Part shown: one piece after another, positions 10,980 to 59,393 of the stretch | Numbering within the stretch: position 1 is the first letter of the stretch | How the letters are laid out: every line of letters starts with the position of its first letter | Made by a program: the position numbers and the translations under genes | Notes under the pieces: model-generated | Told to the model about the DNA's origin: nothing | Databases searched by the model: none | The model's input: the letters and a program-made list of their open reading frames with translations, nothing else | Assembly (NCBI GenBank): GCA_035402645.1 | Contig: DAONDQ010000004.1 | Span: 293-64,292, forward strand | Origin: Candidatus Cloacimonadota bacterium | Lineage (GTDB): Bacteria > Cloacimonadota > Cloacimonadia > Cloacimonadales > DAONDQ01 | Direction of reading: 5' to 3' | DNA: 64,000 nucleotides

Positions 10980-11522
10980 TCATGATTCTTTCCTCTCCGT
11001 TAAAGCGACCTGCATTTCGCGCACAATATTCTCAATCGTTTCTTTATCTGTAACGTATTTGTTTATGATTCCGACAATCTGCTCTGCCATCCTTATAACC
11101 GTGGTCTTCTCAATAGTGACGCCCATGTCCTTCTCCAATTTATGGCAACTCGTCACCAGTTTCTCGATCTTCAGTATGAGTTCGCTAATCGCGCCGGATT
11201 GAAGAATCATCTCGCTTGCATTTTCGAAGGCGTTCATCTTCTCTTCGAGAGTCATACGAAGTATAGCAATCTCATCGCGCAAGTCCTTAATGCCACTTGA
11301 TTCCCGCATCTCCGCTGCGCGAGTATGGAACTTCGTCAATCGGTAGTTGCGGAGGTTCTTCTCCTTCGCCTCGGTAGTAGCAGTATCACCGCCGTGTGCC
11401 AAACAATACTTCGAACCCACTTCGGCAACGTTGAGACACTGCCCATGAGCCTGTGAACCGGCTTGACACCGATTAGGATCGCGTTCATCCGTTACCCGTT
11501 TGATTCGTTCTTTATCAATCAT
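10980..11522 (-). CDS. putative terminase small subunit (zinc-ribbon plus coiled coil)
   Basis: 180 aa directly upstream of terL. The N-terminus carries RCQAGSQAHGQCLNVAEVGSKYCLAHGG, a C..C..C.H cluster, followed by a helical domain. The call is by position only. Confidence 0.45.
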   Translation of the reverse strand: MIDKERIKRVTDERDPNRCQAGSQAHGQCLNVAEVGSKYCLAHGGDTATTEAKEKNLRNYRLTKFHTRAAEMRESSGIKDLRDEIAILRMTLEEKMNAFENASEMILQSGAISELILKIEKLVTSCHKLEKDMGVTIEKTTVIRMAEQIVGIINKYVTDKETIENIVREMQVALTERKES

Positions 11523-11559
11523 AAAACGATTACTCCATCAGCTTACACACTTTACTGCC

Positions 11560-11575
11560 ATGATTATGCAATCAT
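11560..11575 (-). promoter_or_regulatory. 5'-UTR hairpin of the TGATT-N4-AATCA family
   Basis: ATGATT-ATGC-AATCAT, lying between the predicted -10 element (11588-11593) and the terS start. Confidence 0.4.
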
Positions 11576-11587
11576 ACATTTTCACTT

Positions 11588-11616
11588 ACTATACTACAAA
11601 ACACAAATAATAACAA
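11588..11616 (-). promoter_or_regulatory. sigma70-type promoter, copy 1 of 3 (drives the terS-terL-portal-fibre operon)
   Basis: The minus strand reads TTGTTA-17 nt-TATAGT. The same architecture and flanks (GTAGTATAGTA) occur at 33785-33813 and 33933-33961. Confidence 0.55.
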
Positions 11617-11790
11617 GTAGTGCCTTCCCGCGAAAATATAAAAATCATAAATGCCGATTCACTTTTAACATTTGCCAACGACTCGTGTAACAATTACCCA
11701 CTGGCTCTCGGATTGTGCAATCCGTATGAAGTATTAAATACACCATATATGTGAGTTTCGATGGAGGGTTCGGCGGACTTGGAAAATTTC

Positions 11791-11860
11791 ACAACTTACT
11801 ACAACAATTATAACCCACCGCCTGTTGTAAATGGTTGTTGAATCACAACGCGATACAACA
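11791..11860. repeat. cluster of ACAAC/GTTGT pentamer repeats
   Basis: cACAACttactACAACaatt...ccTGTTGTaaatgGTTGTtgaatcACAACgcgatACAACaaaac. The order is two direct, two inverted and two direct copies, upstream of terS. Confidence 0.5.
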
Positions 11861-11934
11861 AAACTATTTTTAAAATATTTTATTTATTTTGCTTGTATAG
11901 TTTGTTTATTTACGAATGACAATTATATTATTAT

Positions 11935-12058
11935 AGGATAATAATATATCCTATGTTCATTGATAATATAATAGTTTGAAGTTTGTAAAAACTGGCACGA
12001 ACGTGCAAAGCTACAAATTAAAACAAAGGTAAATAATAACAAGATAAAAACTTGTTAT
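11935..12058 (+). promoter_or_regulatory. repeated regulatory module, copy A
   Basis: It opens with the near-palindrome AGGATAATAATATATCCT. A 24-nt block ATATATCCTATGTTCATTGATAAT (11944-11967) follows and is identical to 13236-13259. Next comes a nested hairpin at 11982-12017. The module ends with the hairpin ATAACAAG-ATAAAAA-CTTGTTAT (12036-12058). Confidence 0.55.
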
Positions 12059-12065
12059 CCTAATT

Positions 12066-12451
12066 GAAAAATTATTCTATTGTAATCTGTTGTATCGAAA
12101 ATAAAAAGGTGATACAATGAAAATTTTTAATTATCATTTCGTAATTTTTGGTACTAACGAAAAACGCAATTTAATTATTGACGCCTCTTGCGAATCTGAG
12201 GCAATACAAAAATTCAATTGCAAAACAGAATTACAAAATATTAGAATTGAAAAAATATCTTATGCAAATATTCCGAATAGGAAAAACGCTTATGGTGAAT
12301 TCGTTGTTCAAATTTATGTAAATGGGAAAAGACAAAAAGACAACGAATATTTCGCGACGAATTTCGATGACGCTTTAGCGACCGCGCAAAGTATGATAAC
12401 GAATTACTAAAACAAACAAGATACAACAGATTCACAATAGAATAATTTTTC
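12066..12451 (+). repeat. inverted-repeat pair 1, bracketing ORF 12117-12410
   Basis: The left arm 12066-12096 is GAAAAATTATTCTATTGTAATCTGTTGTATC. Its reverse complement matches 12420-12451 at all 31 positions, with one extra C in the right arm. Confidence 0.9.
12117..12410 (+). CDS. hypothetical early protein (97 aa)
   Basis: ORF preceded by the AAAAGGTGATACAATG leader. No motif recognised. Confidence 0.55.
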   Translation: MKIFNYHFVIFGTNEKRNLIIDASCESEAIQKFNCKTELQNIRIEKISYANIPNRKNAYGEFVVQIYVNGKRQKDNEYFATNFDDALATAQSMITNY

Positions 12452-12465
12452 AAACAAAATAAAAA

Positions 12466-12862
12466 TACTGTTGTATATTGTATAGCTTGCCTTTTGAAAA
12501 GGTGATAAAATGGAAATTAAAATTTTAAAGATAGATGGTTTTACTTGCCTTAATTATTTATCCAGTATGGAAACAATACAAGATAGATATTTAATTCAAG
12601 CGGTTATGTCATACGTTATACAACACAAGGAAACAAAAGTAATTGACCATGCATACTGGAAAGCGGAATATCATTTAATAATTGAAAATGCTTTTGAGAT
12701 ATTTTTTATTAAAGAGCAAACAAAGAAAACGGAAATATATTTAAAACTTATTCCGCTTGAAGAAAATTTATTTTTGAATTACGAATATCAAAATAAAATT
12801 CTATTACTTGGAATTGTCAATTAACAAAAGGCAAAAGGCAAGATATACAATATACAACAGTA
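12466..12862 (+). repeat. inverted-repeat pair 2, bracketing ORF 12510-12824
   Basis: The left arm 12466-12495 is TACTGTTGTATATTGTATAGCTTGCCTTTT. Its reverse complement matches 12833-12862 at 29 of 30 positions. Confidence 0.9.
12510..12824 (+). CDS. hypothetical early protein (104 aa)
   Basis: ORF preceded by the AAAAGGTGATAAAATG leader. No motif recognised. Confidence 0.55.
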   Translation: MEIKILKIDGFTCLNYLSSMETIQDRYLIQAVMSYVIQHKETKVIDHAYWKAEYHLIIENAFEIFFIKEQTKKTEIYLKLIPLEENLFLNYEYQNKILLLGIVN

Positions 12863-12864
12863 TA

Positions 12865-13112
12865 GAAAATATTTTTTAGTGCCTCTTGAATAGCCAAAAG
12901 GTGATAACATGAAAAGCGGAATAATGGAATTAATAAACAAACTGGAAAGAGTAAATAGGAAACTAAAAAGGCTTGAAAGCTATTTAAACAAAAGAGGAAA
13001 TGATATTTTACAGGAAAGACATTTTAGACTTTACAAGGAAAAAAGGCTTTTATTAAAGCATATTTCAATTGAACTAAATTAAAAATTTCAAGAGGCACTA
13101 AAAAATATTTTC
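12865..13112 (+). repeat. inverted-repeat pair 3, bracketing ORF 12909-13082
   Basis: The left arm 12865-12890 is GAAAATATTTTTTAGTGCCTCTTGAA. Its reverse complement is identical to 13087-13112 (26/26). Confidence 0.9.
12909..13082 (+). CDS. hypothetical coiled-coil miniprotein (57 aa, below the ORF-track cutoff)
   Basis: The ATG follows an AAAAGGTGATAACATG leader. The product is MKSGIMELINKLERVNRKLKRLESYLNKRGNDILQERHFRLYKEKRLLLKHISIELN. Confidence 0.45.
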   Translation: MKSGIMELINKLERVNRKLKRLESYLNKRGNDILQERHFRLYKEKRLLLKHISIELN

Positions 13113-13130
13113 AATTTATTTTGTAAAGGC

Positions 13131-13177
13131 TTGAAAATAATTTTTAGTATGCTGTAAATTCAGAAAATTATTTTCAA
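13131..13177 (+). terminator. AT-rich hairpin with a T-tract (weak intrinsic terminator, or an 'empty' fourth repeat unit)
   Basis: TTGAAAATAATTTT (13131-13144) and AAAATTATTTTCAA (13164-13177) pair 14/14 around a 19-nt loop. The downstream sequence is TTATTTTTTACTTTT. Confidence 0.45.
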
Positions 13178-13209
13178 TTATTTTTTACTTTTGTTTGAAC
13201 TATTAAATT

Positions 13210-13353
13210 AAGGATATACTATATATAAGGATATTATATATCCTATGTTCATTGATAATTAAATAGTGTTTTGTTTTTCAAAAACGGGATTTTGAAAATC
13301 CAAGCTGAAAACAAAATACAACAGGGAAATTAAAAAAGATAAAAACTTTTTTA
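13210..13353 (+). promoter_or_regulatory. repeated regulatory module, copy B
   Basis: AGGATAT..ATATCCT near-palindromes are followed by the 24-nt block 13236-13259, identical to copy A. A nested hairpin lies at 13268-13319. The module ends with the hairpin TAAAAAAG-ATAAAAA-CTTTTTTA (13331-13353), which has the same loop as copy A on a compensatorily changed stem. Confidence 0.55.
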
Positions 13354-13392
13354 CTGGATTACGATTTCAAATAATCTTAATCAAATTTCATT

Positions 13393-14490
13393 AAATGATT
13401 GAATATTGCTTTTCCGCTTTCCTCAAAAATGAGGTGCGTAAATGATTAATCTTAAAGGTCTTAAAATTCAGGAAATAGCAAAAGACAAGTGCTTTCCTAA
13501 CGTCAAAAATCCGAGAATTGAACTTATCACCTTTGATATAGATGATACGCTCAAAGATGAAAAGACTACAACAGGAATTAAAAAGCCTTGCGTTGTCTTT
13601 GATGATGGTTCGGGAAAATTTGAAATAGGGCAAGGTCACCGCCGTTGGGCAAGTGCCATGAAATTCGAACATATCAAAACTATTCCGTGTATTGTTATTC
13701 CGAAAAGCGGATTAACGGAATTGGATATGTTGGAAATTCTTATGGACCATAATGAGGAAACACCGCTTTCAAAAGCGGAATGTTTCAAGGCAATAAAGGA
13801 ATTTTTCCTTTTGTCTTTCGGTGATTCGGCAATAATAAAGCGTTGTAAAATGCTTCTGAATTCCTCTTTCGGTAGTCCATCGCCGGAAAAGATAAAAGAT
13901 GCTCGAAAAGAGGCGGTCGAAATGCATGAAGATGCCGACCGCGCCGAAGAAAAAGTAATTTTCGAAAAGCACCACGGCACTATTCAGAATTTCCGCCGTC
14001 TTGCCCTTTTGCCTGTTTCCGTTCAAGAGGAATATATAAAGGCATGGCAAGGTCGGAATTCCGACCTAACTCAGAAAGATATTAAAATACTTTCTGAATT
14101 TTGGAACGAACTTGTAAAGGCTAATCCGGAAACAAAGGTTTCCGAACCTCCAAAAGCGTTCGAAGATAAGGTCGAGGAACTAAAGGAAATAAACCGCCAA
14201 CCGGATGATAAGAAAAAATCCGTAAAGCGGTCAAAGTCCGACATAGAAAATATGTCAAAAGGCACTGAAAATGCTATCGTGCGGAAAACTCTTTCATGGG
14301 TTTTAGGTGAAATTACTGATTCCGAGTTGAAAGATTACGTCAAGGCAAAAAGCAACTAACTAACATGGGACGGGAAATCCCATGAATGAGATTTCGTTTT
14401 TATTGATTTTTATTGTAATAGCCTTTATATACTGGCTATGTTTTGAGAAATAAATAAAATCGGAAAGCGGAAAGCAATATTCAATTATTT
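13393..14490 (+). repeat. inverted-repeat pair bracketing the ParB-like gene
   Basis: The left arm 13393-13422 is AAATGATTGAATATTGCTTTTCCGCTTTCC. Its reverse complement matches 14462-14490 (GGAAAGCGGAAAGCAATATTCAATTATTT) with one indel and one mismatch. Confidence 0.85.
13442..14359 (+). CDS. ParB/Srx-fold N-terminal domain protein (paralogue 1)
   Basis: 305 aa. The ParB box-II-like sequence is EIGQGHRRWASAMKFEHIKTIPCIV. The C-terminal LSWVLGEITD matches LAWTIGEISD of ORF 28311-29213. Confidence 0.65.
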   Translation: MINLKGLKIQEIAKDKCFPNVKNPRIELITFDIDDTLKDEKTTTGIKKPCVVFDDGSGKFEIGQGHRRWASAMKFEHIKTIPCIVIPKSGLTELDMLEILMDHNEETPLSKAECFKAIKEFFLLSFGDSAIIKRCKMLLNSSFGSPSPEKIKDARKEAVEMHEDADRAEEKVIFEKHHGTIQNFRRLALLPVSVQEEYIKAWQGRNSDLTQKDIKILSEFWNELVKANPETKVSEPPKAFEDKVEELKEINRQPDDKKKSVKRSKSDIENMSKGTENAIVRKTLSWVLGEITDSELKDYVKAKSN

Positions 14491-14500
14491 AAGGAACAAA

Positions 14501-14737
14501 ATGGATGATATTTATAAAATTGTTTATTCCGATAAATTCGTTAATATGACGAATTTTGATTTGGCAAATTATTGCCGTCAAAACTTCGGCATTTTCTCGG
14601 ATTATTCGGAAAAGCTATTTGCGAATGATTCATACATCAAGTATCTATCTTGCGCGTTTACAGAATTGAAGAAAAATGACTCTGTAAAGGCGCAATATGT
14701 TCGCGAGGAAATTTTAAAACGATTGATGAATCAGTAA
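14501..14737 (+). CDS. hypothetical protein (78 aa)
   Basis: ORF with an AAGGAACAAAATG leader immediately after the right arm of the ParB-gene repeat. Confidence 0.45.
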   Translation: MDDIYKIVYSDKFVNMTNFDLANYCRQNFGIFSDYSEKLFANDSYIKYLSCAFTELKKNDSVKAQYVREEILKRLMNQ

Positions 14738-14751
14738 CAAAGGGGAAAATT

Positions 14752-14934
14752 ATGATGAAAAGTACAACAGAAACTCTTTTGGAATACTTCTTTGATTCGC
14801 TTATTATGCATGACTATGACAACGCCGACGACATCATCGAAGATTTCCGAAATTTTCCCGATTTTTACAAAGAATTGAATCGTATGTATACCGAAGCAAC
14901 AAAGGAAAGGAATCCGGTACAATGGAAAAGCTAA
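14752..14934 (+). CDS. hypothetical protein (60 aa)
   Basis: ORF preceded by GGGGAAAATTATG, in an operon with its neighbours. Confidence 0.4.
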   Translation: MMKSTTETLLEYFFDSLIMHDYDNADDIIEDFRNFPDFYKELNRMYTEATKERNPVQWKS

Positions 14935-15098
14935 TTGAATTGCACACGATGTATTGCTTGGATGCCATCGTCGACGGAGATTTCAAAAGTTACAAGAAAA
15001 GCTATCTGTATCTTGCGGAATTGAGCAGGAAATTCACTAAACTGCACAAATTCATCGTCATGATTCTCGAATCATTAGAAGAAAGGAGGATGGCATGA
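14922..15098 (+). CDS. hypothetical protein (58 aa, below the ORF-track cutoff)
   Basis: The ATG at 14922 overlaps the end of the previous ORF. The product begins MEKLIELHTMYCLDAIVDGDFKSYKK and the stop is at 15096-15098. The terminator follows 35 nt later. Confidence 0.4.
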   Translation: MEKLIELHTMYCLDAIVDGDFKSYKKSYLYLAELSRKFTKLHKFIVMILESLEERRMA

Positions 15099-15133
15099 AG
15101 TAAACAAGTAAAATTAGTCCTTTTTGATCATGA

Positions 15134-15170
15134 ATGGCGCATAATTTACCCCGATTATGCGCCATTTTTC
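15134..15170 (+). terminator. rho-independent terminator ending the plus-strand early block
   Basis: A perfect 12-bp stem, ATGGCGCATAAT / ATTATGCGCCAT, closes an 8-nt loop and is followed by TTTTC. Confidence 0.8.
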
Positions 15171-15460
15171 GTGCCTGTAAACCGATGACGGCAGAATCAC
15201 CACATAAGGCGCTGATTCTCCGCCCTGCATCCATTTCCGCCTGTAAAAGCGCTAAAAAGCATTAATCATGATTTGCTGATCTTAGCGAATCATAAAATAC
15301 AATGTATCGCGAAAACTGGCTTCGTGGTAAATTCCGGATTGATTCTTCGGTACTCCGAAGATTACATGATTTAGTGCCAAGATTAACAATGTTAGTTTTA
15401 CGAGTTTGGATTTGGTCAGTAAAGGGAAGTCGGATTCAGAATCATTTTGAGGCTGGATTC

Positions 15461-15502
15461 TAACTTACTTACTAATATACTTACTAACTAACTAACTAAC
15501 TT
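15461..15502. repeat. TAACTTAC / CTAA short tandem repeats
   Basis: TAACTTACTTACTAATATACTTACTAACTAACTAACTAACTT. TAACTTAC is the reverse complement of the GTAAGTTA iterons at 33901-33924. Confidence 0.8.
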
Positions 15503-15642
15503 CGTCAAATATGATAAGCATACTCCCCTATATATGTACATATACTGGTCTCCTGTCAGTAACTCCGTAAAGCAAGCCTAAGTTTTCAGCCAGTACGGAC
15601 ACGTAAAAGCCTGTAAAATCGAAATTTAAGCGGTTACTACGC

Positions 15643-15694
15643 AATTAAAGGGCATTTCCCGAAGGTTTTGTAAAACCGACTCCGAGAAATGCCC
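15643..15694 (-). terminator. terminator-like hairpin ending the minus-strand replication block
   Basis: On the minus strand, GGGCATTTC ... GAAATGCCC forms a 9-bp stem. It contains an inner GGTTTT/AAAACC stem and is followed by TTTAATT. It lies 38 nt after the nuclease gene stop. Confidence 0.55.
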
Positions 15695-15731
15695 ATTGGT
15701 AACTTTTGTCAATGAAATGTGTAAACTGAAT

Positions 15732-17996: not shown

Positions 17997-19019
17997 TCAT
18001 TCTTCCTCCATGTAAGGTCTATGATACCTTGCTTCCTTTGGAACGCCATCAACTGTCAGTTCACGATACCGGAAAGTAATCTTCTTTCCTAACGGGAAAT
18101 GAGGACTAATACCCACACATTTATATCCGGGAATCATATCCTCATTTGGATGAAAGGTTCTTTCCGCATCGGTCATGCCACTCAACTCGAAGCTCTTGCC
18201 ATGCCAACCTATGACTAATGCACCAATCATACCTAACATCTTGCCTGTCTTGCCTTCCTTACCGGCGATGTATCCGGTAACGTATCCTTCATCATCTTTC
18301 CAAGGTTTGATTTTAAGTATGGTATTGCATCGTTTCGCCATCCATACATCGTAACTTGCCCTAAGCATTAGACCTTCACCGCCTTTATCGCAAACCTCTT
18401 TCAATGCTTGATTGATGTTGGTAGTGCTGAGGTTCGTGTAGTCCACCAAGCAGATGTTACCATTCCAATTAATTCCGCTTAGTCTCTCATAGGTCGCTCC
18501 GAATGTACTACTTTGGCATAGTTCCTTGATTCCCAAATCACGCCAATAGGATTCAGCTTGGACAGGAATTATCACATCCGTCTTGCTGATGACTCTCGGC
18601 TCAAGGAAGTAACGAACCATAGGCGCACCGAACACCATCAAGTTGATTCGTTCCCAATTCTTGATGTCCTGTTCGGTGTAGTCGAGCCTCTTGGTTATGC
18701 TCATACATTCTTGGAACTGTCCTCGACCGAGGTACAACTCACCTTCGAGAAGATAAGGATGTTGCATCAGTTGCTCGATGATGAAAGGCGGAGCAGTTAT
18801 AACCTTCCCCAAGGAAGACCATAGTCCAGTGCTAATCATCTCGCGCTTATCCTTCTTAGTATTCGCCCATGTTACATTCTTCGCGGGCATACCCACAGTG
18901 ACGCCACCATCCCAAATGAAGTACCTACCATCTAGCTTTTCGCTGATGTACCAATCACTCGGATTGATAATGTGCTTCTTTGGATCGTAGACGTGTGCTT
19001 TATGTATGAACTCAGCCAT
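17997..19019 (-). CDS. ATP-dependent DNA ligase
   Basis: Motif I is SEKLDGRY (KxDG), motif III LEGELY, motif IV GGEGLMLR and motif V ILKIKP. The start is moved to the ATG at 19019 (MAEFIHK), which is preceded by AGGAGGA. The track start at 19097 lies inside the upstream gene. Confidence 0.85.
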   Translation of the reverse strand: MAEFIHKAHVYDPKKHIINPSDWYISEKLDGRYFIWDGGVTVGMPAKNVTWANTKKDKREMISTGLWSSLGKVITAPPFIIEQLMQHPYLLEGELYLGRGQFQECMSITKRLDYTEQDIKNWERINLMVFGAPMVRYFLEPRVISKTDVIIPVQAESYWRDLGIKELCQSSTFGATYERLSGINWNGNICLVDYTNLSTTNINQALKEVCDKGGEGLMLRASYDVWMAKRCNTILKIKPWKDDEGYVTGYIAGKEGKTGKMLGMIGALVIGWHGKSFELSGMTDAERTFHPNEDMIPGYKCVGISPHFPLGKKITFRYRELTVDGVPKEARYHRPYMEEE

Positions 19020-20646: not shown

Positions 20647-20816
20647 AACACACTCCCTTTTATATAAATTTGACCGTTCTTTAAGAACTCCATATCTTTT
20701 CCGTCCCGTATTCTTCGAGCGTGAGTCCAACTTATCTTGATGAACTCATCACCATTCTGCGTTATATCGAAGAACCGCCTATTGATTGGTAAATCCTTGA
20801 AGGGTACTTTCCTCAT
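20643..20816 (-). CDS. hypothetical protein (57 aa, below the ORF-track cutoff)
   Basis: ATGA overlaps occur at both ends, with the sigma gene stop and with the next start. The product begins MRKVPFKDLPINRRFFDITQNGDEFIKISWTHARRIRDG. Confidence 0.45.
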   Translation of the reverse strand: MRKVPFKDLPINRRFFDITQNGDEFIKISWTHARRIRDGKDMEFLKNGQIYIKGSVL

Positions 20817-21475
20817 GATTCGATATCCCTCAATATTCGCCTAAGTTTCTCCATCAACTCTGTCTTGACTTGATGAATGTACTGTTGGCTGACTTTTATT
20901 TCTGCTCCGATTTCCGAATCAGTGAAGCCACATACCTTACCATGTAATACGTGCAACTCCACCTTATTCAGCTTCGATTCGATAATCTCAGCTATGTCGG
21001 AATACATATACTCCGTGACCAACTCCGGACTCTCATTGAAGTTCTGATAATCAATGAACTTGTATTTCAATTCCTCTTCGCGATTGAGTTTCTTGAGCAT
21101 CCTATACCACCACTGTGGAACAGGTACTACACTTAGATTGGCGCGGTGTGTCTGAACTCGTCCCCTTATACATTTCGCTATATACTGGATATAGTTTCGA
21201 TGAGGAAGTTCCTCTAACTTATTCACGCACTCCACAAGACACTCCACTGCCACTGAATATTCATCTTTGGTTTTCCTACCAATCTTCTTAGCTAATGGTA
21301 GGAGGTCTAATATAATTTGTTCATGCTTTCCCATGATTAGCAAATCATATATTCCGTTATTATCCAAAGATCCTCCATCCGATGTAGGAGATGAAGCTGA
21401 TGAGCCACACTGCCCAGATACAGAAGGCGACTCTGCCAACTGTTCTGCCGATTGAACGACGCTTGTACTTTCCAT
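20813..21475 (-). CDS. phage-encoded sigma-70 family factor
   Basis: 220 aa. The C-terminal region-4-like HTH is ELHVLHGKVCGFTDSEIGAEIKVSQQYIHQVKTELMEKLRRIL. An upstream helical region resembles region 2. Confidence 0.6.
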   Translation of the reverse strand: MESTSVVQSAEQLAESPSVSGQCGSSASSPTSDGGSLDNNGIYDLLIMGKHEQIILDLLPLAKKIGRKTKDEYSVAVECLVECVNKLEELPHRNYIQYIAKCIRGRVQTHRANLSVVPVPQWWYRMLKKLNREEELKYKFIDYQNFNESPELVTEYMYSDIAEIIESKLNKVELHVLHGKVCGFTDSEIGAEIKVSQQYIHQVKTELMEKLRRILRDIES

Positions 21476-22534: not shown

Positions 22535-22963
22535 TTAGATAGTTTTAAAGACCTTCCCATAAGTTATGAACTCCTCTTTTGTAATCTCCTTAACGCCCGT
22601 AATCTCAAGTATCGCCTCACCAACATCGACTTTGGGTAGGCTACCAAGACTTTCGAGTTCAGTGTAGTCGTGTACTGATTCTCTCCAGTTTTCAATGGCG
22701 TCTCCGCAATCCATAGCTTTGGTAATATAGAACACGTCGTGTGAACTGTTTTCGTTTTCATTTGGTGTATTCTGTTCGGTGATTAAATAGAACTTCTTAG
22801 GAGGCACTGCGATTACTGAATCGAGCTTCCAAGTTTCCTCATATATCTTTTCGCACTTGGTACACTTCAACTGACGAGTCATGGAGTCCTCTTCGTAATG
22901 ATCATACTCGGATAGGACTTCCAGTTCATCGTTGCCACATTCGCATTTTTCTAATCTTTTCAT
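22535..22963 (-). CDS. zinc-ribbon protein
   Basis: The start is moved to the ATG at 22963 (MKRLEKCECGN), which is preceded by GGAGGA and forms a TAATG overlap. Motif CECG...CTKC. Confidence 0.45.
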   Translation of the reverse strand: MKRLEKCECGNDELEVLSEYDHYEEDSMTRQLKCTKCEKIYEETWKLDSVIAVPPKKFYLITEQNTPNENENSSHDVFYITKAMDCGDAIENWRESVHDYTELESLGSLPKVDVGEAILEITGVKEITKEEFITYGKVFKTI

Positions 22964-23292
22964 TATTCCTCCAACAGTTCGATGAAGTTGCAATCATAGA
23001 GGCTTTCGTACATCTCCGGTGTGATGTCCATCACGTGCATGAGAAGTACCACAGTTAAATCATCTTCGTAGTTGCCTGTTGGCTTTCCTTCGGAATCCAT
23101 TATGGGAGATAGGTGTTGGTTGTATGCGTTCCATAATCCACGCCAATCATCCTTCTTACAAATCATGTGTTCGGTGACCTCAAGCGGAACTAAATCAGCG
23201 TTCTCCTGTGCTGAGTTTGTCGGCTTGACCATGTGATTCTTGAATCGGTTCTTGATTGTCAATAGCTTAGCCATTTGAATCATCCCTTTCAT
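22963..23292 (-). CDS. hypothetical protein (first gene after the operator region)
   Basis: 109-aa ORF. The alternative start MAKLL at 23274 has the better SD spacing. Confidence 0.45.
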   Translation of the reverse strand: MKGMIQMAKLLTIKNRFKNHMVKPTNSAQENADLVPLEVTEHMICKKDDWRGLWNAYNQHLSPIMDSEGKPTGNYEDDLTVVLLMHVMDITPEMYESLYDCNFIELLEE

Positions 23293-23357
23293 TTTGATTT
23301 TGATTTACGATAATCATAATCTTGTTTCCGACCTTCCATTAGTATAACGAAAATTCG

Positions 23358-23371
23358 TTACAAAATTGTAA
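23358..23371. promoter_or_regulatory. operator O1, TTACAAAATTGTAA
   Basis: Inverted half-sites TTACAA and TTGTAA are separated by AA. It abuts a second palindrome of the same design, AACGAAAATTCGTT, at 23346-23359. Confidence 0.6.
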
Positions 23372-23468
23372 TTAACCTTTATAATTTTTCCATATTTCGA
23401 CATAATATAATATAAAGCTATATTCAATATATACAAGCGGAAAACAAAAATAATTGAAAAATAATTAG

Positions 23469-23482
23469 TTACAAAATTGTAA
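23469..23482. promoter_or_regulatory. operator O2, (AG)TTACAAAATTGTAA(CT)
   Basis: Identical 14-mer. Here the symmetry extends to 18 bp. Confidence 0.6.
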
Positions 23483-23499
23483 CTACATTTTACAACGAA

Positions 23500-23513
23500 T
23501 TACAAAATTGTAA
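23500..23513. promoter_or_regulatory. operator O3, TTACAAAATTGTAA
   Basis: Identical 14-mer, 31 bp centre-to-centre from O2. Confidence 0.6.
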
Positions 23514-23537
23514 GATTCAAGAATCCAATAATCATAA

Positions 23538-24044
23538 TCAATGTTCGTGCATCCCATTGATGTGTAAATCAAACAACTCCAAAGATGTTTGGCATTTACT
23601 ACCAAAGATATAGAAAATATCAAAATCATTATACAAGTAATCGATTGCCAAATCCGTATATATTTTCCCCATTGGATCATATATGGATTTGCTTCGCCAA
23701 TCCCAAGCGATAGCATGATGACCATTCGTTAGTACAATGTCATGATGCTCAAAGTACATCTTCACACTATAGAATGGCTTGAATGATTTAATATCTTTCA
23801 TGTCATGGCTTATATCCAAACTCTTAGGCAACTCCATCACAGTAAAACCCCTTGAGTTTGCTAACCAAATCAATTCAGCAGAATGGAAGCCACGATAGCA
23901 CCGAGGAACTTCTAGGTTGGTAAAAGCTATCTCAGTGCCATCGTGACCTAAAATCTTAAACACGTGTTCTACATCTACGCCCATGCACATAGCAAAGGCA
24001 GTAGCAAGACAACTGGCTCGATTAGGTTGTTTAATCAGATTCAT
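23538..24044 (-). CDS. papain-fold cysteine peptidase (C39-like)
   Basis: QPNRASCLATAFAMCMG has Gln six residues before the candidate catalytic Cys. GHHAIAWD and IYDP are candidate His and Asp residues. The start is moved to 24044 (ATGA overlap with the upstream stop). Confidence 0.45.
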   Translation of the reverse strand: MNLIKQPNRASCLATAFAMCMGVDVEHVFKILGHDGTEIAFTNLEVPRCYRGFHSAELIWLANSRGFTVMELPKSLDISHDMKDIKSFKPFYSVKMYFEHHDIVLTNGHHAIAWDWRSKSIYDPMGKIYTDLAIDYLYNDFDIFYIFGSKCQTSLELFDLHINGMHEH

Positions 24045-28310: not shown

Positions 28311-29213
28311 TTACTGTTCTGAATCACTGTTATCACCCACCAGTTGAGATGTCGTGCTTATACACTGTGATTCCGGCATTACGAACTTGATGTTATTCTC
28401 CTTCGCGACGTGTTCGACAGTGAGAAGCATATCGTAATCACTTATCTCACCTATTGTCCATGCAAGGGCACGAGTAGCAAGTCCGTTACCAAATGTTTCA
28501 CGAATCAAAGTCTGAAGTTCCAGTACCTCGGACACGTGCCTCTGCCTCTTGGCATCTTTCTTTGCTACTCTAATGGTCATCTTCTTTCCATTAGCAGTGC
28601 CTTTAGTTCCCTTGTATTTGTGAACCAACTGAACCATGTCATCGATTGATCCGCCGTTCTTTCTAATAGTATACAGGTCACGAATCATGGTCTGATTGAT
28701 ATTACCAAGTCTTGCTTCTTCTTGGAACTCTTTAGGTAATTGGAGAAGCATACACCGAACCTGTACCCAACCACGAGTTGAGGACAACTTGTCTGCTATC
28801 TCCTGTTGAGTCATTCCTAAGTCGATGAACTTGCCTAATGCATTAGTTTCATCCATGATGTTTAAATCTGCTCTCTTGATGTTCTCCGCGAGATTTATGA
28901 ATCGCGCTTCCACATCACTAAGGTCATCACGTATGAAGCAAGGTATGGTCTCGGCTTCATTTACTTGATGCGCTTTGAATCGACGATGACCTGCAACGAT
29001 TATATACTTCTTACCATCTTTAGGCTCTTTCAATGTCCTAACGATGATTGGTGCGTGTAGACCGTTCTTTTTTATATCGTCAGCTATATCCACCACACTC
29101 AAAGCACTGAAACTACCACGACAGTTGAAATCCGGATCAGCGAATATTTCCTTCACCGGAATCTGATGTACTTGATAGCGTTCCTTCATGTTTTCCAACG
29201 ATAAATCTGCCAT
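28311..29213 (-). CDS. ParB/Srx-fold N-terminal domain protein (paralogue 2)
   Basis: YIIVAGHRRFKAHQVNEAETIPCFI is like ParB box II (GxRRxxA), followed by an HTH-like MTQQEIADKLSSTRGWV. Confidence 0.7.
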   Translation of the reverse strand: MADLSLENMKERYQVHQIPVKEIFADPDFNCRGSFSALSVVDIADDIKKNGLHAPIIVRTLKEPKDGKKYIIVAGHRRFKAHQVNEAETIPCFIRDDLSDVEARFINLAENIKRADLNIMDETNALGKFIDLGMTQQEIADKLSSTRGWVQVRCMLLQLPKEFQEEARLGNINQTMIRDLYTIRKNGGSIDDMVQLVHKYKGTKGTANGKKMTIRVAKKDAKRQRHVSEVLELQTLIRETFGNGLATRALAWTIGEISDYDMLLTVEHVAKENNIKFVMPESQCISTTSQLVGDNSDSEQ

Positions 29214-32663: not shown

Positions 32664-33665
32664 TTATGCGATCTTGATTCCGACGGAAGCGGCATCCTTC
32701 TTAGCCTGCTCTGCTTCCTTCTGAAGTTTGGCAATCTTTGCCTCGGCGTTCTCGTACTTCTTCTGAACGGTTTCCTTGATACGCCTTTCCTTCGCTTCGG
32801 CGAGAGCCTTCTTACGGGCTTCGTACTTGGCGAGAGATTCGGCAATCGCGGCTTTGTCCATTTTCAGAACCCAGCGAATCGCAAGTGCGAATCCATCGGC
32901 AGGAGTACCGGCGTTTTCCTCTTTGCAGAGTTTCGCGCCAATAGCCGGTGATTCATATTCACCCTTGATTTCGGCAGGTTTCCTCATGACAGGAATTGCC
33001 ACGAATTCTTCCGGCTGACCGTCCTTGCCTTCGCGACGTGCCTTGTCGAGTTCCTTCTTCCTTGATTCAACAAGGGGAACGAATTCAACGGGAGGAAGAG
33101 TCATGGCTCTGTCAAGGAAAGCTGCGATTTCGCCTTCGGGTAGCTTGCTGAGTGCATACGCATTACCGAGTTTGATTTCACCGCTATCAACGGAGTCCTG
33201 TACTTCCTTGGGAAGAGTAAGGAGACCAAAGCGTTCTGAAATCCATGCCGTTGATTTGCAAATCTTCTGAGCGAGATCGGCAACGGTCATGAGAGGGTAG
33301 ACGGAAAGCATACGCTTGAGACCTTTGGCGTACTCAACGGGCTTTGTGTCGACCTTCTGAATATTCGCAACAATCTGAGTTTCAAGAGCTTCTGCCTCTG
33401 AAACATCGAGGATCTGAACAGGTATCTCAATCAAACCTGCCCTCTTTGCGCCTGTATAGCGATGGAGACCATCAACGATACAGAATTTCCCCGCATTTTC
33501 GCCGTCGCGGAGTTCACGGACGCTAATGGGATTTACGATTCCCTTAGCCTTAATCGATTCTGCAATCTCCTGGAACTGTTCTGATTCCTCATTTACTGAG
33601 CGCAGAGCGACGGGAGATTCGACGATCTGATCCAGTTTGAGTGTCGCAAGTTTTGACATTTGCAA
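32664..33665 (-). CDS. ParB/Srx-fold N-terminal domain protein (paralogue 3) with a Lys/Ala/Glu-rich C-terminal tail
   Basis: CIVDGLHRYTGAKRAGLIEIPVQIL (ParB box II-like) is followed by an HTH-like MTVADLAQKICKSTAWISERF. This is the first gene of the minus-strand block. Confidence 0.65.
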   Translation of the reverse strand: MQMSKLATLKLDQIVESPVALRSVNEESEQFQEIAESIKAKGIVNPISVRELRDGENAGKFCIVDGLHRYTGAKRAGLIEIPVQILDVSEAEALETQIVANIQKVDTKPVEYAKGLKRMLSVYPLMTVADLAQKICKSTAWISERFGLLTLPKEVQDSVDSGEIKLGNAYALSKLPEGEIAAFLDRAMTLPPVEFVPLVESRKKELDKARREGKDGQPEEFVAIPVMRKPAEIKGEYESPAIGAKLCKEENAGTPADGFALAIRWVLKMDKAAIAESLAKYEARKKALAEAKERRIKETVQKKYENAEAKIAKLQKEAEQAKKDAASVGIKIA

Positions 33666-33784
33666 CTCCTTTCTCGTGATTGTTCAATCATTGCACTTTT
33701 AAGGAAACAATAATCATAATCATCAAAACAGAATTCCGGCAATCTTCTGATTGTGATTATCAATATAGTTCCTTCCGTCAATGT

Positions 33785-33813
33785 ACTATACTACAATATA
33801 TAAGAAAAAACAA
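33785..33813 (-). promoter_or_regulatory. sigma70-type promoter, copy 2 of 3 (drives the minus-strand replication block)
   Basis: The minus strand reads TTGTTT-17 nt-TATAGT, inside the left arm of the inverted repeat. Confidence 0.55.
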
Positions 33814-33900
33814 GTAAGGTTACAAACTTACTAAAAAACAGTTTGAAATACGTTTATATATATGGTATATATTACAATATTTAGCAATCTATAAATATTT

Positions 33901-33924
33901 GTAAGTTAGTAAGTTAGTAAGTTA
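33901..33924 (+). repeat. three tandem GTAAGTTA iterons
   Basis: GTAAGTTAGTAAGTTAGTAAGTTA. A fourth, inverted copy (AACTTAC) lies near 33825. Confidence 0.85.
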
Positions 33925-33932
33925 AATAATAC

Positions 33933-33961
33933 TTGTTTTTTACCTTATATTGTAGTATAGT
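33933..33961 (+). promoter_or_regulatory. sigma70-type promoter, copy 3 of 3 (drives the primase-methylase block)
   Basis: TTGTTT-17 nt-TATAGT, inside the right arm of the inverted repeat. Confidence 0.55.
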
Positions 33962-34047
33962 ACATTGTAAGGAATTTACCCGTTGCAGAATCACAATCAT
34001 AAGCATTTCAAAATTGATTGTGATTATTTAAAAAGATTGGCTAATCA

Positions 34048-36687
34048 ATGCGTAGTGATGTCGTTAAAAAATTTCTAACTGCCCAAACTCATTCTGACCT
34101 CGCGATGATTTACGAATCATTCATGCAGTGTCATGTACTTGTTTCATCAGATGGCTCAACTAATAGGGATGGAGCAACCTTTACAAATGGAATTGAAACA
34201 TGGTATCCATTTGTTATATCTGACAATGAGTCTGATTCAAAAATCATTAACTTCAATTTTGATGCCCACGTAGAAGGTATAGGCTTAACTGGTTGGGATT
34301 GGAAGAACAAGTTATCCCGATGGGTAGCCTTCGACTTCGATTCTATTGTTGGGCATAAGAAAGGACTTACCGATGGAGAAATCAAAGAGATCAGTGGTTC
34401 TATTGCAGAAATCGATTACGTCACCATTCGTAAGTCTACTGGGGGAAAAGGACTTCACATCTATGTTACACTCAATCCTCCGATCCCAACTACTAATCGC
34501 TCGGAACATGCAGCCCTTGCGAGAGCCATCTTACATAAAATATCAGCCCAAAGTGGAGTTCCACTTAAAGACAAAGTAGATATTTGTGGCGGTAATATGT
34601 TTGTTTGGCATCGTAAGATGACCAAAGAGAATCAAGGCTTACTTCTCATTAAACAAGGTAAGCCACTTGATGATGTTCCCAACTGGAAAGATCAGATTGA
34701 TTTCGTAATCGGAGGCAAACCTAGAGTAAAAGACTTTGATGGTGTTGCCACTGCTAAGATTGATATTGCCATTGATGAAGAACATAAGAAGTTAATCAAC
34801 TTTTTACAGGAAAGGCGAGCGATGTGGTATTGGGATGGCGACAAACATATGCTTGTTTGTCATACAGCCGATCTTGCTGATGCCCACAAAGAGATGAATC
34901 TTCGTGGCATCTTCCGAACGGTTGCAACGGGTAAAAACCGTCCCGATATTAATTGTTTCGCCTTTCCTCTTCGTCAAGGTGGTTGGGTTGTAAGACGATT
35001 TGGAGCAGGTACGGCAGAAGATACAAATTGGGATTTAGATGATAAGAATTGGAGAAAATGTTATTTCAATGTCGATGCCGATATTAAAACTGCATCTCAA
35101 ACATTCGGAGGAATAGAACATACTTCCGGTGCTTATGTATTTAAAACCGCTGATGAAGCAGGATTAGCTGCATCTGCTTTAGGTGTTCACTTAGCACTAC
35201 CCGACATAGCTAATTATTGTACTGCTTCAATCAAAGAACATAAAGATGGTAGACTCATAGTATCTATTGAGGATAAAGAGCATAAGATTCCACAATCAGA
35301 GATGCAAGGTTGGATCAAAGAGAAAGCTACTTGGAAAAGATTATATATCAAACCTAGAACAGTTAAAGCTAAAGAAGATAATTCATCTTATGATGATTTC
35401 ATTAGACATTTAGTATCTCCAAGTGGAGAAGATTATGGTTGGGCATTAAGAACAGAAGAAGGTTGGAACTTCGAAGCACTGGCACACGTTCGATTGGTTC
35501 TTGAATCAATGGGACTACCTACTCAAGAGGTACGTGATGCATTAGGTAATAGTGTTATGAAATGTTGGAAGATAGTTAATATACCATTTAAAGATGAATA
35601 TCCGGGCGGTAGACAATGGAACAGGAACTCCGCTCAAATACGATTCCAACCATCACTTGATGTTACTTTAGACTTAGCAAAGAAGTGTCCAAGTTGGTGG
35701 AGAATACTTAGTCATTGTGGAGCAGGTCTTGATGATATTGTCAAGATGAATGATTGGGCTAAAAGCAACAACATTCACTCCGGTGCTGAGTATCTAATCA
35801 CTTGGATAGCGTCGATGTTCCAAGAACCAACTGAACCTCTCCCATACTTGTTCTTCTACGGACCTCAGAATAGTGGTAAGAGTATATTCCATGAGGCATT
35901 ATCTCTATTGGTTACTAATGGAATAGTTAAAGCAGATAACGCTTTGATTAATAAATCGGGATTCAATGCAGAGATGGAGTCCGCGGTACTATGCGTTGTT
36001 GAGGAAATCAATTTGGCTAAGAGTAGAGAAGCAGCTAACCGAATAAAGGATTGGGTTACTGCTAGGGATATAATGATTCATAGGAAAGGCAAGACACCTT
36101 ATATGATGCCTAATGTATCACATTGGGTACAAATGAGTAATGATCATGATGCCTGTCCTATATTTCCCGGCGATACTCGAATAGTAGTTCTATTCGTTGA
36201 TAAATTGAATATCATCATACCTAAGAAGAAGTTGATTGATTCACTAATCGAAGAAGCAAGGGACTTCATGGCTTACATAATTAATTATAATCTTCCGGAG
36301 TCCTTCGACCGCTTGAATGTACCAGTGATTGCAACATCCGACAAGATGAATATTGAACAATCTAATAAGAGTATGTTAGAGATGTTCATAGATGATGAAT
36401 GTTTCCGTTGTGATGGTGAAATGATTAAGTTCAGTGAGTTCTGTGATAAATTTATGGAATGGCTTGGACCTACAACAGAGTTTTGGTCTAAGCAGAAGAT
36501 TGGGAAAGAACTCCCTCCTATGTTCCCTAAAGGTAGGTTACCTCAGAGTGGTCAGTTCTATGTAGGTAATATTACTTTCGATGCGGAAATCAAATCGACA
36601 GGTAAGTGTGTTGTATTGGGTGATAAGTTAATTAAACAAGAAACAGTAATATCAGAGGCGGTAGTTCATGAATCAAAACTTATTTGA
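34048..36687 (+). CDS. bifunctional AEP primase-polymerase / SF3 (D5-like) helicase
   Basis: 879 aa. The AEP motifs are VAFDFDS (DxD) and GGKGLHIYV (sxH). The SF3 Walker A is FFYGPQNSGKS and the Walker B is LCVVEE. Confidence 0.85.
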   Translation: MRSDVVKKFLTAQTHSDLAMIYESFMQCHVLVSSDGSTNRDGATFTNGIETWYPFVISDNESDSKIINFNFDAHVEGIGLTGWDWKNKLSRWVAFDFDSIVGHKKGLTDGEIKEISGSIAEIDYVTIRKSTGGKGLHIYVTLNPPIPTTNRSEHAALARAILHKISAQSGVPLKDKVDICGGNMFVWHRKMTKENQGLLLIKQGKPLDDVPNWKDQIDFVIGGKPRVKDFDGVATAKIDIAIDEEHKKLINFLQERRAMWYWDGDKHMLVCHTADLADAHKEMNLRGIFRTVATGKNRPDINCFAFPLRQGGWVVRRFGAGTAEDTNWDLDDKNWRKCYFNVDADIKTASQTFGGIEHTSGAYVFKTADEAGLAASALGVHLALPDIANYCTASIKEHKDGRLIVSIEDKEHKIPQSEMQGWIKEKATWKRLYIKPRTVKAKEDNSSYDDFIRHLVSPSGEDYGWALRTEEGWNFEALAHVRLVLESMGLPTQEVRDALGNSVMKCWKIVNIPFKDEYPGGRQWNRNSAQIRFQPSLDVTLDLAKKCPSWWRILSHCGAGLDDIVKMNDWAKSNNIHSGAEYLITWIASMFQEPTEPLPYLFFYGPQNSGKSIFHEALSLLVTNGIVKADNALINKSGFNAEMESAVLCVVEEINLAKSREAANRIKDWVTARDIMIHRKGKTPYMMPNVSHWVQMSNDHDACPIFPGDTRIVVLFVDKLNIIIPKKKLIDSLIEEARDFMAYIINYNLPESFDRLNVPVIATSDKMNIEQSNKSMLEMFIDDECFRCDGEMIKFSEFCDKFMEWLGPTTEFWSKQKIGKELPPMFPKGRLPQSGQFYVGNITFDAEIKSTGKCVVLGDKLIKQETVISEAVVHESKLI

Positions 36688-47708: not shown

Positions 47709-48067
47709 ATTTTCTCCAGTGTGATTGTGAAATCATAAGCATACATATTATTATATCCGCGTCCAATACATGTGAACTCTATTGGATCAGATATTACTCT
47801 TACATTATGTTCAGTTCCGAATTCATCTGTGTAGACTAATATTTGTCCTGCTGATGCTTTTAAGAATTCGATTACTTCATCTTTCTTACTACCCATCACA
47901 CCTTTGATTGGTAACTCAAACTTGTCAGCCGGTGGAGTATACCGGAAGGAATATATCTTGCCATCCATAGCATGATCAAACATTGTTTTGACATTAACAA
48001 TCTTTGCTTCACCATACTGCGGATTAGGCAGTATCAAATTGTATGTATCGTATGAGAACAGTATCAT
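47705..48067 (-). CDS. minor tail protein (lambda gpM-like)
   Basis: 120 aa. EVIEFLKASAGQILVYTDEFGTEHNVRVISDPIEFTCIGRGY...FTITLEKI matches the pattern of the C-terminus of the upstream 898-aa protein. Confidence 0.45.
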   Translation of the reverse strand: MILFSYDTYNLILPNPQYGEAKIVNVKTMFDHAMDGKIYSFRYTPPADKFELPIKGVMGSKKDEVIEFLKASAGQILVYTDEFGTEHNVRVISDPIEFTCIGRGYNNMYAYDFTITLEKI

Positions 48068-58933: not shown

Positions 58934-59393
58934 TAAGTCCTGCGTTTTGTGTTAAAGATTGAGAAATCACGTTATCAGCTTCTGTGCCTTTCACGTTTAC
59001 TATCGTAACAAGCCACAGAGTCGTATTCTCATAGTTCTCGCAGTTGGCGATAGTATACCGCTTTCCATTGATTACTACTCGATCATTTGCGTCGAATTCG
59101 CCACGCCAATCCTTAGGGAAGTTCTTCTGTTCAACCATCAGTAGTCGGGTATTGGTATCGTAGTATCCGCCATAGGCGAATTGACCATTAAATACCTTTA
59201 GTACCCTATCCATTTTGATTGGTAGGAGAACTGCCTTCTTGACCTTTGTGTCGGCATAGACGTTGGTCATCTTGCCAGTTTCGACATTGATTGTCTCACT
59301 GGCAAGATGAAGCCAATTTACTACTACTGCGTGGTTTTTACGCAGGTCGTAGTATGATTTACGAATCATGTGTTTGTTATAACAGGTAATCAT
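58911..59393 (-). CDS. head closure / head-tail joining protein candidate
   Basis: 160 aa directly after the capsid gene. The C-terminal DRVVINGKRYTIANCENYENTTLWLV resembles the head-tail joining family ending. Confidence 0.45.
   Translation of the reverse strand: MITCYNKHMIRKSYYDLRKNHAVVVNWLHLASETINVETGKMTNVYADTKVKKAVLLPIKMDRVLKVFNGQFAYGGYYDTNTRLLMVEQKNFPKDWRGEFDANDRVVINGKRYTIANCENYENTTLWLVTIVNVKGTEADNVISQSLTQNAGLNDVGINA

Follow-up and report, generated by a model that had tools for sequence, protein, structure and literature searches.

A mirror-symmetric control region with a candidate replication origin between the divergent ParB1 and primase-helicase genes of an uncultivated siphovirus

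What does a tailed phage hold in the short gap from which its replication genes are read in two opposite directions, and is that gap a place of transcription control only or also the place where replication starts? The question is raised by 388 bp at positions 33660-34047 of a 64,000-nucleotide (nt) stretch of DNA, called the window here, which is nearly the whole of a 64,564-nt contig deposited within a 'Candidatus Cloacimonadota bacterium' metagenome-assembled genome (MAG). The gene content of this contig, despite its deposition in a Cloacimonadota MAG, is that of a complete tailed phage, an uncultivated siphovirus, and the gap lies between its leftward gene for a ParB-family protein (ParB1) and its rightward gene for a primase-helicase. 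Judged from its sequence, the gap is a mirror-symmetric control region with three nested layers which is conserved across a phage family, and as such a hub it is real. From the outside inwards it presents operator-like TGATT sites, two putative outward promoters and an AT-rich centre between opposed short repeats, for which a role as origin is plausible.

The gap has a guanine-plus-cytosine (GC) content of 26%, against 40% for the window, and two inverted repeats are nested in it. The arms of the first (I1, 33779-33816 / 33930-33967) are 38 nt long, 89% complementary and 113 nt apart, and the inverted-repeat score of 22 compares with about 9.4 (maximum 11.5) in Markov shuffles. The second (I2, 33744-33758 / 33989-34003) shares with I1 a common centre near 33873, and 33744-34003 is therefore a quasi-palindrome, which as single-stranded DNA takes a strong nested fold (z = -11). 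The core between the I1 arms (33817-33929) has 19.5% GC and on its own a weak, branched fold (z = -2.85), and only one other 100-bp stretch of the 64-kb window is less stable than 33854-33953 (dG, the free energy, is -101 against a mean of -130 with standard deviation 7). The identical gap, with the core in the same orientation, was found in two independent assemblies, and no Rfam covariance model matched 33400-34300 at E <= 1. A sequence-only reading of the region had listed arms, core, repeats and TGATT motifs, and all of these are present and non-random by sequence check, shuffles and Tandem Repeats Finder (TRF). To them we add a doublet at 33710-33722, a palindrome at 34034-34047, a partial repeat unit at 33816-33823 and a palindrome which recurs genome-wide.

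For comparison, ParB1 orthologues were collected by alignment-based search, single-protein locus searches with ParB1 and PolA having given none. A ParB1 orthologue adjoins the gap in at least 149 IMG/VR viral contigs with strict synteny of Dam, primase, gap, ParB1, g214, SNF2, ParB2 and PolA; read from the gap, the leftward operon runs ParB1, g214, SNF2, ParB2, PolA and the rightward one primase, Dam. The comparative set was made of 71 ParB1-primase gaps from metagenomes, 69 of them non-redundant, with lengths of 327-1174 nt. A long inverted repeat is found in 45 of the 71 (median score 18 against 9 in shuffles), and its arms are near-identical within each phage and unrelated in sequence between phages. 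Two motif classes stand out by k-mer enrichment in the 69 gaps: AATCAAATCA / TGATTTGATT, represented by ATCAAAT in 48 gaps against 13 expected, and (G)ACTTAC / GT[AC]AGT, represented by GACTTAC in 24 against 3.1. Their clusters number 27 in gaps against 3 elsewhere and 10 against 3, respectively, in 963 kb. The positions of the motifs are ordered along 61 non-redundant gaps, where TGATT/AATCA is restricted to the outermost 20% on either side, ACT[TG]AC peaks at gap fraction 0.4-0.5, GT[AC]AGT peaks at 0.6-0.7 and TATATA is central. Loci which have the primase but no adjoining ParB1 are without the TGATT cluster.

The arms appear to be two copies of an outward sigma-70-type promoter, TTGTTT-N17-TATAGT, with activity predicted from sequence. 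In the left arm (33779-33816, minus strand) the -35 box TTGTTT lies at 33813-33808 and the -10 box TATAGT at 33790-33785, and in the right arm (33930-33967, plus strand) the same boxes lie at 33933-33938 and 33956-33961, with a 17-nt spacer in both. A third copy, TTGTTA-N17-TATAGT, is present on the minus strand at 11616-11588, 65 nt upstream of an ATG. It is part of an element at 11561-11616 (minus strand), before a 180-amino-acid (aa) gene with its ATG at 11522 which heads the terminase/portal operon, and the element also carries a perfect TGATTGCATAATCA at 11574-11561, 13 nt beyond the promoter copy. All three copies have the blocks TACTTGTT-(9-10 nt)-TTGTAGTATAGTA in common, with a spacer variable in sequence and fixed in length, and each is correctly oriented 39-125 nt before the first ATG of its operon. 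The same arm positions are occupied by TTGCAA-N17-TATAGT in the relative L156 and by TTGTAC-N17-TATAAT in L157. In relatives with 69-72% primase identity the -35 box, the 17-nt spacer length and the -10 box are kept while the spacer sequence differs, which is the signature of a bipartite promoter; many related gaps further show an outward-read -10-like box (CGTAwwATA or TATAGT) at the outer ends of the arms. The arm promoters escaped a generic promoter scanner, their match to the sigma-70 consensus being modest (8 of 12 positions, and 3 of 6 in the -35 box). The proposal of a dyad-symmetric, functional and protein-bound region with arms that act as divergent promoters is supported.

Outside the arms the TGATT motifs follow one order on each side of the gap: promoter, inverted pair of doublets, 14-bp palindrome, start codon. 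On the left, the inner doublet TGATTGTGATTAT (33748-33760, plus strand, exact) and the outer doublet TGATTATGATTAT (33710-33722, minus strand, one mismatch) form the inverted pair, 25 nt apart, and the outer one is kept as ATAATCATAATCA in relatives with 69-72% primase identity. Then comes the operator-like palindrome TGATTGTTCAATCA (TGATT-N4-AATCA, 33677-33690), followed by the Shine-Dalgarno sequence AAGGAG, read from the sequence at 33666-33671 (minus strand), 6 nt before the ATG at 33659, which is the true start of ParB1 (331 aa, 32664-33659, minus strand). CTCCTT/CCTCC is likewise enriched at the ParB1 end of related gaps. On the right, the inner doublet TGATTGTGATTCT (33987-33999, minus strand) is an inverted TGATTGTGATTAT with one mismatch, the outer doublet is an exact TGATTGTGATTAT (34015-34027, plus strand) 15 nt away, kept as CTGATTATGATTAT in L155-L157, and an imperfect palindrome AGATTGGCTAATCA (34034-34047) touches the ATG of the primase-helicase gene (879 aa, 34048-36687, plus strand; 124 nt from the right array described below). 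Counterparts of this last palindrome are GATGGTGGCATC-ATG in L088 and TGATTGGATAATC in L155. Allowing at most one mismatch, the 71 gaps contain 70 palindromes of the TGATT type (4.1 expected), most densely near the starts of the two genes, and the TGATT sites are kept in close relatives while the surrounding sequence diverges. By position and conservation these sites are putative operators and not origin iterons. They lie between promoter and ATG, they recur at the terminase promoter so that palindromic sites follow all three TTGTTw-N17-TATAGT promoters (ParB1, primase and terminase operons), and they are found genome-wide; the idea that the TGATT repeats are origin iterons was accordingly given up. 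As separate observations, L082 has a comparable TGATT cluster adjoining a g178 homologue, and two gaps from phages with 58-62% primase identity (L027 3580-3965, L067 1560-1900) have four symmetric copies of TTCTCATTTTTGAGAA plus TGATT palindromes, which suggests an extra regulator in that lineage.

Nowhere is the genome-wide motif GATT-N4-AATC denser than at the gap sites, and the 64-kb window holds 83 copies of it against 4.15 expected. The perfect form TGATT-N4-AATCA occurs 21 times against 0.5-0.8 expected, with the 4-nt gap only; examples lie at 609-622, 8561-8574, 18527-18540, 34106-34119, 47722-47735 and 59355-59368. The median spacing of GATT-N4-AATC is about 520 nt, and 76 of the 83 copies lie within genes, in all codon phases and untied to gene starts; the total of palindromic forms across the genome comes to about 83-100, mostly intragenic. 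The motif changes between clades: GATG-N4-CATC has 34-36 copies per 15-21 kb in L088, L095 and L101, GATT-N5-AATC is the form in L089, L121, L143 and L150, GATA-N5-TATC is that of L096, and some related clades are without any dispersed palindrome. The switch to GATG-N4-CATC in the GATG clade extends to gap sites and dispersed sites alike, and includes GATGGTGGCATC at the primase ATG. A further cluster of TGATT doublets and palindromes in the window lies at 23234-23322 (and 23530-23540), straddling the start of the gene 22963-23274. Beside it, the AT-rich intergenic stretch 23293-23537, between minus-strand genes, bears another palindrome, TTACAAAATTGTAA, three times (23361-23374, 23471-23484, 23501-23514).

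What then is the centre for? Its AT-rich part is 69 nt long (33832-33900, 16% GC), contains TATATATATGGTATATAT, which is (TA)4TGG(TA)3T, at 33855-33872, and is a candidate DNA-unwinding element. To its right stands an iteron-like array of three GTAAGTTA units (33901-33924, plus strand, 100% matches, TRF score 48) which ends 8 nt before the right -35 box. To its left are the units AAGGTTAC (partial, 33816-33823) and AAACTTAC (33824-33831), on the minus strand and so opposite to the right array. In close relatives (L155-L157) the primase side has an AGTAAGT-type array of several copies, and on the ParB side there are one or two units. Twenty gaps have the strict pair ACT[TG]AC...GT[AC]AGT, with spacings clustered at 66-70 and 81-91 nt and AT-rich sequence between. 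The GTAAGTTA unit is not a dispersed one (71 matches against 62 expected), and arrays are present only in the gap and at 15461-15504. This second array, of AGTTA/GTAAGT type, is on the minus strand in a convergent, promoter-less intergenic region, aligns to the core with a score of 34 (shuffles 19 +/- 2.6), and is adjoined by a GGATTCAGAATCA site at 15432-15444. Homology of the two places as duplicated modules was considered and rejected: the alignment covers no more than the repeat array and short AT motifs, and the 15.5-kb site is therefore a second array and not a duplicated module. A TATATATGTACATATA palindrome also adjoins it (region 15432-15560), and the ParB-primase gaps of L020 and L021 bear AGTTAGTTAGTTAGTTCAGTTC.

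Relatives add boxes for DnaA to this layout. The gaps of L083, L085, L088, L095, L100 and L112 contain 2-5 perfect DnaA boxes (TGTGGATAA) each, in the primase-proximal third, between the GTAAGT/GTCAGT units and the primase gene, and of the 34 perfect DnaA boxes in the family sequence (1.04 Mb), 18 are these gap boxes, which fall in 3.4% of the bases.

A candidate initiator for the putative origin is encoded next door. The primase-helicase matches Pfam DUF5906 at 8e-17, with weak LigD_Prim-Pol and AEP-TOTE matches, and its domain order is a primase of the archaeo-eukaryotic primase (AEP) type, with weak signal, a D5/DUF5906 helicase of the superfamily 3 (SF3) type, and a winged-helix-like C-terminal domain. 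The AlphaFold model has a predicted local distance difference test score (pLDDT) of 81. Its Foldseek matches are NrS-1 in the helicase region (4e-14), E5 of monkeypox virus (MPXV), vaccinia D5 and the PrimPol of African swine fever virus (ASFV), and also PriRep5 of the Staphylococcus aureus pathogenicity island (SaPI) SaPI5 and Rep1-dsDNA of SaPI1; the PDB entries include 7ola, 7pds and 6k9c. The C-terminal domain (last ~120 residues), modelled alone, has a pLDDT of 83 and matches best the winged-helix folds of RFX, Fur, SarX and forkhead proteins and the C-terminus of ASFV PrimPol, weakly (E 0.03-0.3, TM-score on the target 0.63-0.68).

Several observations weigh against the origin and its attendant claims and are brought together here. 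The strict opposed pair is found in only 20 of 69 gaps, and no DnaA box (TTATCCACA) was found in 33660-34047 even with one mismatch; a comparison of sites by eye also gave no match to the consensus WATCAANNNNTTR of the integration host factor (IHF). The winged-helix match of the primase C-terminus is weak. SaPI origins are downstream of rep, and the phage element is upstream of its initiator gene and between promoters. The position of the GTAAGTTA array, 8 nt from the right -35 box, is equally typical of an activator site or UP-like element. The sigma-70 consensus used for the arm promoters may not be that of the host, because the contig is labelled as a Cloacimonadota MAG and the phage encodes a sigma-like protein. 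The GC skew has a local minimum at 33-34 kb, which mirrors the switch of gene strand, and is negative again over 41-64 kb, a stretch of minus-strand genes; since it follows gene orientation it is uninformative on the origin, and we rejected it as an origin indicator.

The explanation which survives best beside an origin is that the region is purely transcriptional. The arms would be promoters, the TGATT sites operators, and GTAAGT/ACTTAC together with the AT tract activator or UP-type elements shared by both promoters; the origin would then be elsewhere, for example in a gene or in the AT-rich stretches of 11.8-13.3 kb or 23.3-23.5 kb. The closeness of the array to the right -35 box has its counterpart on the left, where a unit lies about 10 nt from the -35 box, and both promoters, read outward, meet GTAAGT in the same orientation. 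AT-rich spacers are common between divergent promoters, equally unstable AT-rich stretches exist elsewhere in the window, and the GC skew is without origin signal. An activator site for these promoters does not sit well with the second array in its convergent, promoter-less region (15461-15504), nor with the third promoter copy at 11.6 kb, which has no array directly upstream. Opposed units keep a spacing within 66-91 nt whereas the arm sequences are free to vary, perfect DnaA-box clusters occur in the same gap of six relatives, and a SaPI-like initiator is encoded beside it. Since the array position fits an activator too and the skew does not inform, we hold the chances of an origin at the gap centre to be about evenly balanced, a plausible role which layout, conservation and the neighbouring helicase suggest, and we consider a purely transcriptional region possible, though on the unlikely side. 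Of the replication-origin or centromere function proposed in the sequence-only reading, it is the origin, placed at the centre, that has gained indirect support (layout, the SaPI parallel, the helicase fold and the DnaA boxes of relatives), and the centromere that has lost ground.

That centromere would be a parS-like one, at which ParB1 and/or ParB2 load on the TGATT sites to segregate or position the phage or plasmid-prophage DNA. ParB-family genes do flank the region, and palindromes cluster beside the ParB1 gene. Two such genes were detected in the window, and not the three ParB-like genes formerly counted. ParB1 is by sequence a genuine ParB/Spo0J/Noc/KorB homologue with a helix-turn-helix (HTH) domain (Pfam ParB_N 1e-13, HTH_ParB 2e-11; sequence matches in the PDB to ParB, Spo0J, Noc and KorB at 1e-23 to 1e-15). 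Its Box II reads GLHR(Y) and not GERR, and ANIQK stands in place of ENLQR, so that the canonical motifs for binding and hydrolysis of cytidine triphosphate (CTP) are absent. ParB2 (28311-29213, minus strand) keeps the canonical GxRR and ENLxR motifs (AGHRRF, ENIKR/ENLQR), which speaks for a centromere. No ParA-type partner (ParA, CbiA, AAA_31) was found in the 27 window proteins scanned with Pfam and PHROGs, small open reading frames (ORFs) being outside the scan, and no ParA-type ATPase among the neighbouring genes scanned; no integrase or protelomerase was seen, and PolA, ligase, SNF2 helicase and terminase give the gene content the look of a lytic phage. Far from being localised, the sites are spread over 64 kb, 76 of the 83 within genes, and those in the gap lie exactly between promoters and start codons, as at the terminase promoter. 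With dispersed and mostly intragenic sites, altered ParB1 motifs and no ParA found, the sites are therefore better described as a KorB- or Noc-style set than as a classical centromere, which we regard as improbable.

ParB1 is nevertheless the best candidate binder of the TGATT sites, to which its adjacency in every syntenic locus, its HTH homology and the covariation of its recognition helix point. This helix reads W-I-x-G-R-L in 6 of 6 members of the GATG and DnaA-box clade (L083, L085, L088, L095, L100, L112) and W-[IVL]-x-[EQDS]-R-L in nearly all GATT-type phages. The recognition helix of ParB2, SRGWVQVR, is family-invariant with no change along with the site variants, and that of ParB1 is variable. 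Two points count against the link of ParB1 helix and half-site: it is essentially that of one clade and so confounded by phylogeny, and L073 is an exception, with a GATG-rich gap and the ParB1 helix WITDRL. A wider view, in which ParB1 marks the whole phage chromosome via about 80-100 GATT-N4-AATC sites and gates both replication-gene promoters and the nested SaPI-like origin, is speculative and in our estimate rather unlikely. If it is true, ParB1 would be a genome-wide Noc/KorB-like system of the phage which links genome marking, early-gene control and origin firing. The genome-wide palindrome, with half-sites that switch from clade to clade, offers a natural experiment on how ParB-family proteins choose their DNA.

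It is very improbable that the region is an invertible switch in which a recombinase flips the 113-bp core between the 38-nt repeats and so moves the GTAAGTTA array between promoters. Long near-identical inverted repeats around an asymmetric core, with arm pairs near-identical within a phage and unrelated between phages, would be expected of such a device; no invertase or recombinase was found among the genes scanned, the core has the same orientation in three independent assemblies and the multi-copy array of close relatives is always on the primase side, and the arm promoter is also present singly elsewhere in the window. A site of telomere resolution or of packaging, or an element that acts only as a cruciform structure, is just as hard to credit: a 267-nt region folds as a nested single-stranded hairpin, and the window, like some relatives, has alternating purine-pyrimidine tracts at the centre, against which stand the lack of a protelomerase among the genes seen, a centre that is not a perfect palindrome, the weak branched fold of the core alone and terminase genes 22 kb from the gap.

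We propose that the control region, with the origin at its centre, would work as follows. The twin promoters would fire outward, the left one into the operon from ParB1 to PolA and the right one into the primase-Dam operon. A phage-encoded dimeric DNA-binding protein, most likely ParB1, would occupy the TGATT sites and co-regulate both operons, and the terminase operon, with the same promoter and palindrome, may be regulated together with them. The phage origin would consist of one or two AACTTAC units and the three GTAAGTTA units, opposed across the (TA)n tract. The self-loading AEP-SF3 primase-helicase could bind these short repeats through its winged-helix-like C-terminal domain, one hexamer would load on each side, and the AT tract would melt. 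In the twin-domain model transcription generates negative supercoiling between diverging promoters, and such supercoiling between the two promoters of the gap may aid the melting.

The phage around this region carries tailed-phage genes for terminase, portal, tape-measure protein and tail spike, and further genes for PolA, ligase, an SNF2 helicase, a Dam-type methylase, an exonuclease and a sigma-like protein. The contig is probably a mis-binned phage, or its place in the MAG is a hint about the host. No close relative was found among GenBank phages by megablast and tblastn, which gave domain-level matches only, and the phage group is therefore without literature; the family is large, is represented by metagenomes only and is without a cultured or studied relative. 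In the protein database 918 primase homologues were found at E <= 1e-20. Among the longer ones, P0012, P0048 and P0059 (1214-1263 aa) bear LAGLIDADG and intein-splicing domains (PF14528, PF14890), which points to insertions of inteins. The sigma-like protein (220 aa, 20813-21475, minus strand) matches the PHROG 351 RNA polymerase sigma factor at 1.6e-7 and Pfam Sigma70_r4 at 0.006, and by these two weak matches the phage may redirect transcription by its own means. An island (11523-15731) of 27-36% GC, whose small ORFs run on the opposite, plus, strand, separates the terminase operon from the end of the replication operon, and it contains 3 of the 7 least stable 100-bp stretches of the window.

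Taken singly, the components of the control region are familiar ones, namely divergent promoters with operators, a ParB-family regulator and an iteron/AT/iteron origin for a self-loading helicase. Their nested combination, its strict conservation in a family and the genome-wide palindrome which switches between clades appear not to be described in the literature found. The hub gives a map for an uncultivated family, with the control of early transcription and a probable start of replication. If the centre is an origin, the iteron/AT/iteron design of SaPI type would extend from satellites to full-size tailed phages, and an origin between twin promoters would be an arrangement best known from small eukaryotic DNA viruses.

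The nearest parallel for the centre is the SaPI origin, which has 6-12 penta- or hexanucleotide iterons beside rep, an AT-rich centre and at least two opposed iterons per side; the C-terminal winged-helix domain of the SaPI Rep binds the iterons, and two hexamers self-load (PMC9371898). The phage centre is similar in its short opposed repeats on both sides of an AT-rich tract beside an initiator gene (PMC9371898). Two units lie on its left side too, although the second, AAGGTTAC, matches at only 5 of 8 positions. Its candidate initiator, like SaPI Rep/PriRep, is a D5-type helicase, fused to a primase here and sometimes so in the SaPIs, and the similarity is one at the level of the fold only. 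The phage element differs from the SaPI ones in lying inside a long inverted repeat and in the asymmetry of its repeat copies (1-2 against 3).

The operator layer resembles the KorB/OB system of RK2 (PMC11790492, PMC13584720), in which an element-encoded ParB-family HTH protein also has its palindromes at several operon promoters, including those of replication genes. This KorB-like pattern of sites is consistent with a global co-regulation, repression itself being predicted, and other ParB-family regulators to which ParB1 can be likened are VirB (PMC10770331) and BisD (PMC12409273). Unlike KorB, ParB1 is without the canonical CTP motifs and is in this nearer to the CTP-independent ParT of SCP2 (PMC12260392). 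The phage has about 83-100 mostly intragenic sites, compared with 12 OB sites on RK2. Its site is TGATT-N4-AATCA plus direct doublets, again unlike RK2 KorB, and a KorA or IncC partner was not identified.

The initiator of polyomaviruses is an SF3 helicase that loads as two hexamers. The non-coding control region of polyomaviruses and the geminivirus intergenic region (PMC9894130, PMC12907893) place an origin core, opposed initiator sites and an AT tract between divergent promoters, as the phage gap seems to do. These are systems of eukaryotic viruses with unrelated sequence, and in them the promoters are autoregulated by the initiator, whereas a separate ParB-like regulator is likelier here.

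Iteron-plasmid and P1-type origins (PMC4980987) share with the phage family the iteron-like repeats by an AT-rich region and, in six relatives, DnaA boxes. They differ from it in that the window gap is without a DnaA box, its repeats are contiguous 6-8 bp units and not phased iterons of 17-22 bp, and the candidate initiator is a helicase-primase and not Rep_3 or RepA. P1 incA and P4 crr are control loci, and the second array at 15.46-15.50 kb recalls them.

The dispersed palindrome, at last, has its closest likeness in the Cluster O mycobacteriophages, lytic siphoviruses with tens of 17-bp dyad repeats of variable centre whose function is unexplained (PMC4351075). They too encode a ParB-like domain protein in a genome bearing dispersed palindromes (PMC4351075). 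The phage GATT-N4-AATC is denser, at about one per 770 bp, and 92% intragenic, whereas about two thirds of the Cluster O repeats are intergenic or near gene starts (PMC4351075). Unlike that of Cluster O, the phage motif also has a concentration of copies at replication-gene promoters.

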